From Bacteroidales bacterium (lineage in GTDB: Bacteria; Bacteroidota; Bacteroidia; Bacteroidales; F082), in contig JAZUST010000145.1 of NCBI GenBank assembly GCA_045606865.1, positions 9,359-73,358 on the forward strand: a stretch of DNA of 64,000 nt. Direction: 5' to 3'. Below are positions 5,103 to 40,650 of the stretch, piece by piece (the first letter of the stretch is position 1; each line of letters starts with the position of its first letter). The translations under genes were made by a program, and so were the position numbers. The notes under the pieces were generated by a model. The model saw nothing but the letters and a program-made list of their open reading frames with translations, was not told the DNA's origin and searched no databases.

Positions 5103-5528
5103 ATGGCGAGAACATTTTCAACAGTTGTCGAGTTACAAAAACATATGGAATCTGCTTGTCGTAAAGCCGTAGAAAATGCTTGTAATAGGCTTCTCGGACG
5201 ATTACAGGAAATACTTGATGAAGAATACTATGATGTTTTTGAGCCTGAGCGTTATAAACGTACTATGTCTTTCTGGAGGTCGGCTACGACAAAAATGTTA
5301 GATAATACTTGCGGTCAAGTATTTATGAATCCCGATGTTATGCATTATAAAGCAGGTTGGTCAGGTAAAGCACAGATTGAGTCAGCCGCCAAAGGTTTAC
5401 ATGGTGGTTGGGATTATGAAGGTGTTAGCGACCATAAATATTGGGAAGTTTTTATAGCATACTGTGAAAAAAATGCACTAAAAATACTCAAAGAGGAATT
5501 AAGGGCGCAAGGGATTCCGATTAAATAG
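5103..5528 (+). CDS. hypothetical virion protein (weak HK97-gp10-like resemblance)
   Basis: ATG 4-5 nt after a GAGGTGA SD. ...YDVFEPERYKRTMSFWRS... resembles the Y..P..Y.RTG.L motif of gp10-type tail-completion proteins. Confidence 0.7.
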   Translation: MARTFSTVVELQKHMESACRKAVENACNRLLGRLQEILDEEYYDVFEPERYKRTMSFWRSATTKMLDNTCGQVFMNPDVMHYKAGWSGKAQIESAAKGLHGGWDYEGVSDHKYWEVFIAYCEKNALKILKEELRAQGIPIK

Positions 5529-5552
5529 AGAATAATATATCGAGGTGATATT

Positions 5553-10677: not shown

Positions 10678-11250
10678 CAAATTCAGGGAGTCTTTGTTTT
10701 GAATTGCCTGACCTATCATTGTATAGAATAATCGGTCTATACAACAAATGGGAATACTCTAGCGTTTTAAAATAAATAGAGATGGGTTATATGGTCTACT
10801 CAGTAGACATCTCCGACAACTGGAGGTCTGGGACGTGACATAGAATTATAAGGCTACAATAGAAAATTGGAAACGATAAACTATGAATGCAGGTATGAAA
10901 AGTACATAAAAACATATAATTCGGTTTCTGGGCGTAAAGTCAAAGAACTATATGCGACTCATAATTATAATATCGTAAAGTCACTATCAGCAGATAAATC
11001 ACCTAAGTCATTTGATATGGTGAAATCTCAACGACTACCATCCATCTTATAGCAACACGATAGATTGCTATAGGAACGTATAGTCTGTACTGGCACCGAA
11101 TATGAGGCGGTGTAAAGTTGTAGTGCTATCTTATCAGCATATTTGTGGAACTCTCATTGCCGGAGTTGATAAGAAGGCAATAGAACATGAATTTCATTGG
11201 CAGAATTTAGACATAAAAATAAACACTCAACGATGAGTGTTTCGTGGCAT
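10678..11250 (+). ncRNA. group I ribozyme core of intron 2
   Basis: R/S elements 50 nt apart and P9-like hairpins (ATTGCC...GGCAAT about 11155-11185; AAACACTCA/TGAGTGTTT about 11220-11243). Only a spurious 61-codon ORF is present. Confidence 0.6.
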
Positions 11251-11320
11251 AATATAAACATTTGTGCGCATTATGAATACAAAGTTAAGCAAAATGTATT
11301 GTTTTAGTAGCCTTTTGGTA

Positions 11321-11349
11321 TTGACAAGTGTAAAGCAATTTGGTATAAT
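11321..11349 (+). promoter_or_regulatory. consensus sigma-A-type promoter
   Basis: TTGACA (11321-11326), a 17-nt spacer, then TGgTATAAT (-10 at 11344-11349 with an extended -10 TG). Confidence 0.75.
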
Positions 11350-11355
11350 ACATAT

Positions 11356-11473
11356 AGAAAAAGACAAAAGAGACGGAGATATCGGTCAAATATCTCAATG
11401 GTTTCCCTTTTTGTTTATATGGTTACATAAAATGTAGAAACCACTTCAACGGAGGAAATTGAGGTGGTTTTTA
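11356..11473 (+). ncRNA. candidate ~115-nt sRNA (antitoxin-like), runs from the promoter to the shared terminator
   Basis: Bounded by the consensus promoter and the hairpin+T5 terminator. No SD-led ORF. Its 5' part AAAGACAAAAGAGAC (11361-11375) can pair with the peptide mRNA leader. Confidence 0.5.
11436..11473. terminator. bidirectional intrinsic terminator shared by the convergent sRNA and peptide transcripts
   Basis: 9-bp stem CCACTTCAA/TTGAGGTGG (one G-U pair) with A-rich 5' and T5 3' flanks, so a U-tract is present on both strands. Confidence 0.7.
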
Positions 11474-11480
11474 TATGTTT

Positions 11481-11549
11481 TTATCTCGGTTTTGCAATAA
11501 GGAGCAATACCAGAGTTACAATTAATACGTAGTAGAAATCGTAATTCAT
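11481..11549 (-). CDS. 22-aa hydrophobic peptide MNYDFYYVLIVTLVLLLIAKPR (type I toxin-like)
   Basis: GAAAGGAGG SD 5 nt upstream of the ATG. TAA stop. Single TM-like core with a basic C-terminus. About 110-nt leader in which CCTTTC can sequester the SD. Confidence 0.55.
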   Translation of the reverse strand: MNYDFYYVLIVTLVLLLIAKPR

Positions 11550-11669
11550 ATCGACCTCCTTTCTGCCACCTACGGGGAGATGGACTTGCGAAAGGAAAAC
11601 CACCCTAACCATTCTTACAAAGACCAAAAGAAACTCAGAACAATTAAGCGTCTCTAATGTCCAATGAGC

Positions 11670-11698
11670 ATTATACCATTATTGTCGAATATTGTCAA
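11670..11698 (-). promoter_or_regulatory. consensus sigma-A-type promoter for the peptide mRNA
   Basis: On the minus strand: TTGACA (11698-11693), a 17-nt spacer, then TGgTATAAT (-10 at 11675-11670). Confidence 0.75.
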
Positions 11699-11702
11699 TA
11701 TA

Positions 11703-11730
11703 AAGACACCTTCGGGTGTCTTATTTTTAT
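11703..11730. terminator. intrinsic terminator (strong on +, usable on -)
   Basis: AAGACACC-TTCG-GGTGTCTT followed by ATTTTTAT on the + strand. The minus-strand flank is TTATATT. Confidence 0.75.
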
Positions 11731-11746
11731 GCCCGTTAATAAAACG

Positions 11747-11773
11747 ATAGCACCCTACTTGGGTGCTATTTTG
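11747..11773. terminator. intrinsic terminator (ends the minus-strand cassette; also followed by T-rich sequence on +)
   Basis: ATAGCACCC-TACTT-GGGTGCTAT. The minus-strand flank is CGTTTTATT and the plus-strand flank is TTTG. Confidence 0.7.
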
Positions 11774-11816
11774 ATAAGAATTATGTATAGGAATTTTAAC
11801 GAGAGGATTTGATTTG

Positions 11817-11957
11817 ATGAAGCATCACTATATCAGAAAAATTAAACTTACAGATGATATAACGCTCGTGATATATGGATATACTCGTTTTGGCAAAGAC
11901 CATAATGAGTCTTGTCATTTAAAGTTCAAAAACGGCGAAATATATCCTATTGTTTAG
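11817..11957 (+). CDS. possible 46-aa ORF (MKHHYIRKIKLTDDITLVIYGY...)
   Basis: ATG 9 nt after GAGAGGA. TAG stop. Overlaps the 3' end of the convergent gene by 11 nt. No family recognised. Confidence 0.3.
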   Translation: MKHHYIRKIKLTDDITLVIYGYTRFGKDHNESCHLKFKNGEIYPIV

Positions 11958-30478: not shown

Positions 30479-30799
30479 TCAATTTACAATAAATTTCTTC
30501 ATACCCTCTTTAACTTCATAAGGTATATCACCATAAAATTCTACATTTAAAGGTTTGGTTAAATCTAAACTATATAACCCCATTATTGACTTGGCATTTA
30601 CAACAAAACGCTCAGACTTAACCACAACATCTTCTTTACATTTTGAAGCCAAATTTACGAATTCAGCAATATCCGTAACTCTATTAAAGTATATAGTTGC
30701 TTTAATCGTATCTAAAATAGGCTCTAAATCCTGACATTTATGACAAACCATGCTCCCTTCAGGAATGGGTCTATCACACATCACACATCTTTCTTCCAT
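30479..30799 (-). CDS. zinc-ribbon + HPr-like domain protein
   Basis: ATG 30799 after AAGGGTGA. CVMC...CHKC, then ...FVVNAKSIMGLYSLDLTKPLNVEFYGD... (HPr-fold signature without the phospho-His context). Its TGA stop is in frame with the next gene. Confidence 0.7.
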   Translation of the reverse strand: MEERCVMCDRPIPEGSMVCHKCQDLEPILDTIKATIYFNRVTDIAEFVNLASKCKEDVVVKSERFVVNAKSIMGLYSLDLTKPLNVEFYGDIPYEVKEGMKKFIVN

Positions 30800-34360: not shown

Positions 34361-34492
34361 TAATCACATTGGAGTAAACTATAGTTTTGTGTCCGGACAA
34401 ACCTCTTTCCTCCTTCTGTAATTTCTATACAATATATTATTCTCTCTTTACAAGAGATTTTTTTATTTAATTTTCACCTTAAAACGAGCGTT

Positions 34493-35242: not shown

Positions 35243-35336
35243 TGGTGGGATAGATCAGAGTCGAACTGATAACCAAGGGTATTCAACAGCAATATCCCTT
35301 CACGCTGTAAAGCTCTGCCGATTGAGCTACTATCCC
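35243..35336 (-). tRNA. 94-nt tRNA-like gene with canonical acceptor, D and T arms but a non-canonical 41-nt anticodon/variable region; identity undetermined
   Basis: GGGATAG-TA-GCTC-AATCGGCA-GAGC-[41 nt]-ATCAG-TTCGACT-CTGAT-CTATCCC-A-CCA. The 41 nt fold either as ACAGC/GCTGT with a 13-nt loop plus a long variable arm, or as a 9-bp hairpin. Confidence 0.6.
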
Positions 35337-39523: not shown

Positions 39524-39548
39524 ATTACCTCCTATTAAAATGAAAATT

Positions 39549-40364
39549 TCATTGATATTTTTGATAGTTATATTCAAAACAGTTCATGTTAAAGTCAGGC
39601 TTGTCTATCTTTTCAAATTTACCATTACTGATTCTACGTTCAAATATCAAATCACAATCTTTAGGATTCTTTAATCCTTGATATTCAGAATACTCATTAA
39701 GCATTTTCTTAGCATCTTTATTTAGCGGATAGACATACCTAAACATAAAACCATTAATCTTATCAATGCCTTTATGTACACAAAAATCATGTGTGAGCCA
39801 AAATCTTTTTTCAACGCCATCATATTGTGCATTTTCTTGGAGTAAAACCTTTGCACTTCTTGGATGTATCTTCTCGCCAGTCTTAAGATTCATATACACA
39901 CTTGTCTTGAATTTACCTATGTAACGAAAATTGCTTGCCTGATAAACATATCCGGCTTTACCCATAATACCGTCAGCTAATGTATACAGTCACTTACAAT
40001 CTGTGTTTTGTTTCATCCACCTAACAAGTAGTGAAACAACCTCGCTGCCAAAAGATTTTGTACTATTCATATCCGGCAGGAAACACATCTTCCCTATTTC
40101 TAAATAATCAGTAGTAACGACATCGTGTTTATAGAATAATTTCTTTATCGTCTGTAAAGGCTGTGTTCCCCAACCCAAAGTTACTACTCCGAGAAGTTGT
40201 TCTTCTTTGAAAACACCTAAATAGCGTTTGGTTATACGAGGTAAGATTTTGGAGTAGTGATATTTTTGAACAAACTCTATTGCTATTTGCTTATCAATTT
40301 CCTTTATATCGTACTTATAAATTGTTCTTCACAGGAGAAACTCATGAGTTTTATGTGCGCACAA
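39549..40364 (-). CDS. Mom-like / GNAT-fold DNA-modification family protein containing two in-frame TGA codons (40329-40331, 39990-39992)
   Basis: TTG 40364, 7 nt after GAAAGGAG. One continuous frame: ...IAIEFVQKYHYSKILP...GVVTLGWG...EIGKMCFLPDM...LLVRWMKQNTDCK-TGA-LYTLADGIMGKAGYVYQASNFRYIG...FRYVYPL.... Confidence 0.7.
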
Positions 40365-40392
40365 CTCTTTTCTCCTTTCACTTTATTATTCT

Positions 40393-40650
40393 CTATAACT
40401 TTATGTTAAATATTAGTCCGTCAAGGTAGTCCTTTAAAAGTGTATCTCGCAAATCATCTAATGTTTCGCAGGACATACCCCAACTTATATGTTTATCGTG
40501 TAGGTCATAAAGGTCATAATTCCCATCTAAACATTGACACTTAAACAAGTGAAGAGTGTCGTCATTACGAGTCACTTCAACCAGTTTGCCCGGCACGATA
40601 CTGAATATAGTTTTTGTAATCCTCAATACCTGATTTTTATGAGATTCCAT
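40393..40650 (-). CDS. hypothetical protein
   Basis: 85 aa. ATG after GAGGTATAAG. TAG stop. Confidence 0.65.
   Translation of the reverse strand: MESHKNQVLRITKTIFSIVPGKLVEVTRNDDTLHLFKCQCLDGNYDLYDLHDKHISWGMSCETLDDLRDTLLKDYLDGLIFNIKL

Follow-up and report, generated by a model that had tools for sequence, protein, structure and literature searches.

How a gene of the Mom family can be expressed from a frame that holds two in-frame TGA codons and lacks a canonical start codon is the question raised by a minus-strand locus (39549-40364) in a 64-kb stretch of DNA, referred to here as the window. All coordinates are those of the window, and codons of this gene are numbered in the frame that opens with the TTG at 40364. 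A preliminary description had read the locus as a single gene starting at this TTG, in which both TGAs must be decoded, with Trp fitting both positions. The analysis reported here favors a different explanation, which as a whole we consider moderately probable: the first TGA would be the stop of a small regulatory open reading frame (ORF) in a structured 5′ leader, translation of Mom would begin at an ATT a few nucleotides downstream, and the second TGA would be a nonsense change private to this allele. Judged from the comparisons below, the two TGAs are unrelated in cause, and the preliminary description had joined separate features.

The Mom frame, its first TGA and its start

The anatomy of the frame agreed with the preliminary description. 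From TTG 40364-40362 to 39549 it comprises 272 codons with zero TAA or TAG; in-frame TGAs are located at 40331-40329 (codon 12) and 39992-39990 (codon 125), the Shine-Dalgarno sequence GAAAGGAG is located at 40379-40372, 7 nt upstream of the TTG, and all of the quoted peptide motifs were found. Apart from the TGAs the gene is intact, with no frameshifts and no indels relative to intact homologues. The terminal stop (39551-39549), which had gone unmentioned, is also a TGA, and a back-up in-frame TAA lies 7 codons past it (39527-39525), overlapping the ribosome-binding site of the next gene. When the TGAs were entered as X or W for homology searches, the translation matched Pfam family PF25680 'Mom' (E 8.8e-58; 195.7 bits against a gathering cut-off of 27.1; residues 18-223, profile positions 2-194 of 202) and the structure of Mu Mom (PDB 8bv8_A, 'Methylcarbamoylase mom'; E 8.7e-13; query residues 9-209), confirming the proposed membership of the Mom family and its GNAT fold. 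Identity to Mu Mom was 29.7% by tblastn. A large protein collection contained 1108 homologues, and amino-acid identity was 93-97% to P0001 and L021; P0001, encoded on the related sequence L001, was the closest full-length relative (93%). These matches place the coding signal well above anything expected by chance.

Alignment placed the active-site residues H58, Y59, S124, D149, and Y159 of Mu Mom, the roles of which have been described (PMC13219725), at H36, Y37, S107, D131, and Y141 of the window protein. The essential R111 and R151 of Mu correspond to K92 and I133, in an alignment of approximately 29% identity with an uncertain register around R151. Mu Mom uses Gly-tRNA as the donor of the glycine that it attaches to the N6 position of adenine in double-stranded DNA; its activity was drastically reduced by R111K and abolished by R151A (PMC13219725). 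The present protein may represent a Mom subfamily with K and I in place of R111 and R151, in which the substrate, co-substrate or chemistry could differ from the glycyl-tRNA-dependent reaction of Mu. Edwardsiella phage vB_EtaM_ET-ABTNL-9 was also seen to carry an intact, ATG-initiated Mom gene (L074; MN399336.1, approximately 71886-72650, minus strand), which shares 64% identity with the query and is unannotated in the GenBank record.

Alignment with family homologues, a check set beforehand, separated the two TGAs. No residue was present at the position of the first TGA in 113 of 120 homologues, the N-termini of which map to codons 14-19, while the second TGA falls at an aromatic position; no sign of decay was seen. 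The claimed need to decode both TGAs is therefore wrong, since the first lies 5′ of the family N-terminus, and the proposal that Trp fits both positions holds for the second (see below) and fails for the first, which is outside the coding sequence. The first TGA is the stop of a leader mini-ORF at 40329-40364 (minus strand; TTG TGC GCA CAT AAA ACT CAT GAG TTT CTC CTG TGA), which has 11 sense codons and is served by the Shine-Dalgarno sequence mentioned above. Among the leader variants the TTG was invariant (22 of 22), and the spacing from GGAG to TTG was 5-9 nt. The 36 nt of the mini-ORF were identical in L001, L021, L059-L062, and L067, while the Mom ORF diverged by 6-16%. In L001, the upstream 52 nt were identical base for base to the window, and the TGA was followed by GAT and then by ATG ACT, the Mom start, one codon later. 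The relation of mini-ORF to gene varied in other sequences: the Mom ATG of L060 is out of frame with the mini-ORF, a variant mini-ORF in L064-L066 overlaps the Mom ATG in a different frame, a 2-nt deletion in L068 causes the mini-ORF to stop after 4 codons and leaves a TAG in the Mom frame 3 codons before the TGA, and the mini-ORF is absent from L070 and L073. In other leader types the mini-ORF peptide was not conserved, and its frame relative to the main gene varied. Furthermore, the same leader, with an in-frame TGA just 5′ of the start, precedes an unrelated C5 cytosine methylase, which argues against the first TGA as a Mom codon. From these comparisons we infer that the first TGA was never part of Mom and ends a regulatory mini-ORF.

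As had been noted, the stretch that separates the first TGA from the conserved N-terminal helix contains no ATG, GTG or TTG, and the next canonical start is the TTG within ...VVTLGWG.... The missing start is real, but it is a conserved trait of a clade and is best explained by initiation at ATT. The start region reads TGA AGA ACA ATT TAT AAG in the window versus TGA GAT ATG ACT TAC AAA in L001. The pattern TGA AG(A/G) ACA ATT TAT AAG was found in 7 sequences from 7 samples (the window, L021, L059, L061, L062, L067, and L068, with AGG in L068), and relatives with an ATG carry it at the codon adjacent to the ATT position. A second lineage, represented by P0002 and P0003 (on L070 and L073), is 77–78% identical and has unrelated upstream DNA; there, GGTGA ACA A(A/G)(A/T) ATT is followed by 15 open codons containing the family IDK motif before the called GTG or ATG, and a TAG two codons before the TGA makes read-through from an upstream start impossible. 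Both lineages have the same geometry of GTGA, 6 nt, and ATT. The sequence GTGA is complementary to part of the 16S rRNA 3′ end. Because GTGA-N6-ATT is shared by the 7 window-type sequences and by L070 and L073, the most likely Mom start is the ATT at 40322-40320 (minus strand), 6 nt past the GTGA and the leader stop. The Mom-family ORF would then span 39549-40322 (minus strand), where 257 codons, one of them the internal TGA, precede the terminal TGA. A start at this ATT predicts (f)Met-Tyr-Lys-Tyr-Asp as the N-terminus of Mom, and a read-through fusion predicts MCAHKTHEFLLW.

Gene callers shorten the ATG-less alleles to 215–231 amino acids (aa), and the gene calls in L070 and L073 (244 aa) begin 16 codons past the ATT, at GTG or ATG. 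The second lineage carries a different leader of like design (L070, 2880-3000; L073, 1380-1500), in which a hairpin is predicted to sequester the GGTGA and the ATT start; its apical palindrome is AGCTGGCCAGCT in L070 and AGCTGCGCAGCT in L073.

The selection pattern in the ATG-less clade was examined with L001 as the outgroup. Codon changes on the branches were 21 synonymous and 4 non-synonymous in the window and 19 and 3, respectively, in L021; private changes were 17 synonymous and 4 non-synonymous in the window, and the same in L068. These counts indicate that the clade evolves under purifying selection, not decay.

The second TGA and the genetic code

The second TGA (39990-39992, minus strand) differs from all related sequences. 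Codons 125-126 are TGG TTA or TGG TTG in 12 of 12 related loci and TGA CTG in the window only; similarly, the terminal stop is TAA or TAG in all 12 relatives and TGA in the window only. Codon 125 aligns with W143 of Mu Mom, and the 120 homologues carry F (110), Y (8), W (1), or L (1) at this position, in keeping with the proposal that Trp fits here. Searches of IMG/VR with degenerate DNA patterns found no contig with TGA at codon 125 and none with the window-type start, and exact-protein look-ups of the 138-aa fragment and both neighboring proteins gave no match in a public protein collection. The equivalents of Mu H58/Y59 and S124 are encoded before the TGA and those of D149 and Y159 after it; with catalytic residues on both sides, neither Mom fragment is expected to be active alone. 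We regard it as fairly probable that TGA-125 is a private TGG-to-TGA nonsense change and marks a recent loss-of-function allele, which together with the leader stop and the ATT start would account for the locus.

Downstream of TGA-125, no structure resembling a selenocysteine insertion sequence (SECIS) and no stimulatory structure was detected beyond shuffled controls (folding z-score -0.13). Selenocysteine at this codon was rejected, as there is no SECIS hairpin and Cys was never seen at this position in the homologues. A cluster of private substitutions around TGA-125 was considered as a sign of selection and also rejected, because several of the variants are shared with more distant alleles.

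Usage of the standard code was evident throughout the window. ORFs in code 11 contained 18,621 codons, or 87% of the window, including 247 TGG codons, and the heuristic gene ends were TAA in 54, TGA in 19, and TAG in 14 cases (n = 87). Two of the TGA stops were compared with relatives and both are conserved; one of them, TGAGGTGAT, overlaps the Shine-Dalgarno sequence of the next gene. With TGA read as sense, Mom was the only recognizable protein family joined across a TGA, and the joins at 30479/30469 and 39080/39055 were discarded as ordinary gene boundaries. No tRNA-UCA was found in the 64-kb window by ARAGORN and Rfam, which gave only a tRNA-Gln(UUG) and one aberrant tRNA-like element. Genome-wide recoding of TGA was rejected from stop usage, ORF integrity, coding density, and the conserved TGA stops; apart from the TGA within Mom, the window uses the standard code, and an altered code, with 19 TGA-ended genes and no tRNA-UCA in the window to set against it, is unsupported. 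True recoding as the cause of the second TGA is accordingly considered highly unlikely.

The tRNA-like element is located at 35246-35336 (minus strand), 139 nt upstream of the tRNA-Gln(UUG). It scored 43 bits with the Rfam tRNA model and has a perfect acceptor stem, a D arm, a T arm, and an encoded CCA, with a 35-nt region in place of the 17-nt anticodon arm. It was missed by ARAGORN under default settings; forced readings were inconsistent (Asn(att) with a 10-nt 'intron', or Phe(gaa)) and yielded no sensible anticodon, and TCA is absent from its anticodon region.

Several other explanations of the two TGAs were weighed. In the model of the preliminary description, TTG 40364 is the start codon and Trp is inserted at both TGAs, by a suppressor tRNA or in a code-4-like host, giving a protein of 271 residues with an N-terminal extension. 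The strong Shine-Dalgarno sequence 7 nt before the TTG, the mini-ORF that is in frame with Mom in the window and in L001, L021, L059, L061, L062, and L067, and the TGA at the end of the window Mom, unlike all relatives, speak for it; however, the leader and its TTG mini-ORF precede unrelated genes in varying frames, L068, L070, and L073 are unable to make an upstream fusion because a TAG lies in the Mom frame shortly before the TGA, the extension is missing from 113 of 120 homologues, and 19 other genes end in TGA, two of them at conserved stops, with no tRNA-UCA in the window. Recoded phages, moreover, have many recoded late genes together with suppressor tRNAs (bioRxiv 10.1101/2021.08.26.457843), and on this evidence we judge the model extremely improbable. 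That two apparent defects occur in one gene could point instead to an old pseudogene in decay, whose missing ATG and nonsense codon are lesions acquired one after the other, but the ATG-less form is present in 7 sequences of different samples with a synonymous excess of 5:1 to 6:1, and frameshifts, TAA or TAG codons, and indels relative to intact homologues are all absent, which leaves little room for this view; we rate it as very unlikely. A sequencing or assembly error at 39992-39990, the true codon being TGG, would require a single-base difference from the universal TGG in an allele that is without independent confirmation (the Mom fragment and its two neighbors being absent from the public protein collection). 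Since base quality elsewhere in the window shows no hint of being poor, with ORFs of 1150, 1118, 832, 754, and 715 aa uninterrupted at a coding density of 87%, and the adjacent codons also differ from those of the relatives by ordinary synonymous transitions, we think such an error rather improbable.

A further explanation is that TGA-125 is a tolerated or selected leaky stop, at which the tRNA-Trp of the host reads UGA-C at a low rate and little active Mom is made. Read-through by tRNA-Trp would restore the native residue, since Mu Mom and all close relatives have Trp at this position; the TGA is followed by C here versus T in every relative, the codons past it on the window branch changed almost only synonymously, and Mu Mom is described as a lethal function under elaborate control (reference 26 in PMC13219725; PMC6483171). 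Against this, none of the 12 relatives and no IMG/VR contig has TGA at codon 125, no stimulatory structure follows it (folding z-score about 0), and the context is unremarkable, since CTG is one step from the TTG of L060 and the neighboring private variants are shared with distant alleles; read-through of a few percent on a weak ATT start would also leave very little enzyme. The conserved UGA expected of programmed read-through is absent at codon 125; the leader does keep its TGA across variants, though not in a constant frame with respect to the main ORF. A leaky stop is thus possible, though we lean against it. More doubtful is an extended form, in which three stacked brakes, namely the sequestering leader with its mini-ORF, the AUU start, and a UGA-C read by tRNA-Trp, would keep toxic Mom at trace level. 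If true, a double-stranded DNA phage that infects Gram-positive gut bacteria would have a gene-specific programmed read-through, which might represent the very first stage on the way to TGA recoding; the peptide NTDCKWLYTLADG from the window allele would mark decoding of TGA-125.

Some points weigh against the explanation preferred here, that of a leader stop, an ATT start, and a private nonsense allele. A read-through fusion of the mini-ORF and Mom is conceivable, the two being in frame in 6 of the 7 window-type sequences. Initiation at ATT is deduced from sequence alone, and the window-type GTGA matches the anti-Shine-Dalgarno sequence over 4 nt only. Change on the window branch after codon 125 is almost only synonymous, which means that the knock-out, if real, is very recent. 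UGA-C is the weakest termination context in E. coli, and some full-length protein is plausible; the base at TGA-125 is itself known from the assembled sequence. Lastly, the tRNA scan covered 64 kb of a genome that is probably >100 kb, and a suppressor tRNA could lie outside the window.

The structured leader and the cassette

The leader is approximately 53 nt long (40329-40381, minus strand). Its outer stem is formed by AGGAGAAA (40376-40369) and TTTCTCCT (40340-33); in 22 of 22 variants the Shine-Dalgarno arm AGGAGAAA is predicted to pair with the downstream arm UUUCUCCU (CUCC), by which the stem would sequester the Shine-Dalgarno sequence. A second hairpin, AAAC-loop-GUUU, is predicted to compete with the outer stem for the U-run. 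RNAfold gave -12.5 kcal/mol for the Mom leader, and the architecture was kept in 22 distinct variants. A covariance model, R1, was built from 16 leader variants. It scored the Mom leader at 62.2 bits (E 2e-12), recovered all copies at 53–68 bits, and found a divergent copy outside its training set (L061, 6122-6172; 39 bits), directly 5′ of a C5 methylase and with one C-G pair of the second hairpin turned into G-C by compensatory change. In an alignment fitted to R1, the figures from which consequently lean toward the structure, standard pairs occupied 86.9% of cells versus 78.5% in shuffles (reached by 0 of 500) and 42–61% when the partners were slid; both-sided changes were seen in 7 pairs overall, and in 6 of the 8 pairs of the outer stem. 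As an independent check, cognate arms paired at -9.8 kcal/mol versus -8.0 kcal/mol for non-cognate arms. RNAalifold on a plain MAFFT alignment, in which the 5′ arms were out of register, returned the invariant second hairpin only.

The apex of the leader is a palindrome, TGTGCGCACA (40354-40363, minus strand), which holds the start codon of the mini-ORF; the corresponding copy in the leader of the C5 methylase is at 34390-34399 (minus strand). Among 24 distinct aligned sequences of the form TTGT-SCGS-ACA(A), the core was GCGC in 12 and CCGG in 12, never GCGG or CCGC and never unpaired, and it has been switched in several leader backgrounds. GCGC and CCGG are classic target sequences of C5 methylases. 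As a 2-nt RNA loop is sterically unlikely, the dyad symmetry may represent a DNA operator or an RNA duplex site.

A second copy of the leader is located at 34367-34417 (minus strand; R1, 62.0 bits), before a C5 cytosine methylase gene at 34360-32699 (TTG start at 34360-34358; Pfam DNA_methylase, E 5e-40), with ATG TGA TTA directly 5′ of the start codon. A degenerate leader pattern was found in 27 IMG/VR contigs (L076-L102), and 8 of the 10 downstream genes tested against Pfam encode DNA methyltransferases (2 C5, 5 N6/N4, and 1 MT-A70). Proteins of unassigned family also follow the leader in L079 (225 aa, with an FPPCTY motif) and L092 (150 aa, Cys-rich). No family in Rfam 15 matched the leader (E up to 5), nothing relevant to it was found in the text of Weinberg et al. 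2017, and leader searches of INPHARED phages gave marginal matches only. The leader appears to be an undescribed cis-regulatory element of several unrelated classes of phage DNA-modification genes, as it is common to four unrelated kinds of enzyme (Mom, C5 methylases, N6/N4 methylases, and MT-A70). Should the leader prove to be a true control element, these phages would share one switch for their anti-restriction DNA modification, and the leader could serve as a tag for new modification or anti-defence genes, for example those of the L079 and L092 proteins.

Main genes after the leader are without a Shine-Dalgarno sequence of their own, and the mini-ORF ends beside the main start (stop plus 3–8 nt, or an ATGA overlap) or, in a short class, after 4 codons. 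This arrangement fits termination-reinitiation, but the short class shows that more than this mechanism must be involved. For the Mom gene of the window, we propose that the leader pairs its own Shine-Dalgarno sequence with the downstream CUCC arm and carries the TTG mini-ORF that ends at the first TGA; Mom would most likely be initiated at the ATT, by ribosomes that have just terminated at the mini-ORF stop, by the weak GTGA element, or by both. Translation of Mom, an enzyme whose uncontrolled action is reported to be lethal in phage Mu, would in this way be weak and gated. With TGA-125 in place, most likely a loss of function, full-length enzyme would arise only from rare near-cognate read-through by Trp. 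The locus suggests how a gut-phage Mom clade without a canonical start is expressed, probably from an ATT after a structured leader, and it carries a warning for annotation in that two in-frame TGAs in one gene need not mean a new genetic code.

The Mom cassette (39536-40395, from box to stop codon) opens with a promoter-like box, AGAGAATAATAAA (40382-40394, minus strand), at which homology to the cassettes of other phages starts; homology with L001 covers 40395-39536 of the window. The neighbors of the cassette vary across L001 and L059-L068, and in other phages they include genes for an N6/N4 methylase, an IS605-type OrfB, a serine recombinase, and macro-domain/cREC proteins. From this variation the cassette appears to behave as a mobile, self-contained module consisting of the box, the leader, and the gene. 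The motif AGAGAATAATAWA occurs in 7 copies in the window versus approximately 1 expected, and 0 of 100 shuffles reached 7. Every copy is on the coding strand (5527-5539 on the plus strand; 31627-39, 34433-45, 39203-15, 40382-94, 53797-809, and 53873-85 on the minus strand), and several are directly 5′ of genes, including both leader-bearing genes, Mom and the C5 methylase (box at 34433-34445). The motif may act as a promoter specific to this phage or as a -10-like box.

The window has a G+C content of 34% and encodes a serine recombinase, a DnaE-type polymerase, a ribonucleotide reductase, the C5 methylase, and tail genes; it is part of a large temperate phage. Its relatives are metagenomic, among them a record derived from human faecal samples. 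The locus had no match among INPHARED phages by megablast, and a protein scan and a leader pattern scan of GTDB species genomes likewise gave none. In the tail-gene module, a 1.2-kb stretch (10720-11947) contains main-strand ORFs of ≤61 aa only, with short ORFs of the opposite strand on its flanks; a non-coding region, a decayed gene, and an island of small genes are all conceivable.

Comparison with known systems

In phage Qbeta, the coat/A1 gene is subject to programmed UGA read-through by tRNA-Trp. The second TGA of Mom is similar in being an in-frame UGA at which decoding by tRNA-Trp would give a longer, functional protein; it is different in that the UGA of Qbeta is fixed and essential, whereas here it is present in one genome only, with TGG in the relatives and no conserved context or structure.

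The proposed start can be compared with that of E. coli infC, the expression of which is limited by initiation at AUU. Both would use a weak non-AUG codon to limit expression, the ATT of Mom being located at the start position of the family, before a product that needs tight limits. They differ in that autoregulation of the IF3 type has no evidence here, and in that the ATT follows a terminating mini-ORF, where reinitiation may replace de novo binding of the 30S subunit.

Recoded gut phages, in which TGA is read as Trp or TAG as Gln, have numerous in-frame stops, most of them in late genes, and as a rule encode suppressor tRNAs (bioRxiv 10.1101/2021.08.26.457843, PMC9523058). The window resembles them in its relation to human gut metagenome sequences and in an in-frame TGA at a Trp position; unlike them, it has one affected gene, 19 others ending in TGA, and no suppressor tRNA within its 64 kb.

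The closest parallel is the com-mom operon of phage Mu, which concerns the same enzyme family. In both, an RNA structure just upstream, with a small hairpin adjoining, hides the start signals of a DNA-modification gene (PMC6483171), the structure being a predicted one in the present case. In Mu, the translation-inhibition structure is opened by the zinc-finger protein Com (PMC6483171); no Com-like zinc-finger gene was found beside Mom in the window, where the upstream gene encodes an 85-aa protein without a Pfam match or CxxC pairs, and the upstream neighbors of Mom differ between loci. The host of the present phage is probably a low-GC Gram-positive gut bacterium and not an enterobacterium, and the enzyme has K and I in place of R111 and R151. 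The leader is also different from that of Mu in sequence: it carries a Shine-Dalgarno sequence and a TTG mini-ORF, is followed by a likely ATT start, and is shared with DNA methyltransferase genes.

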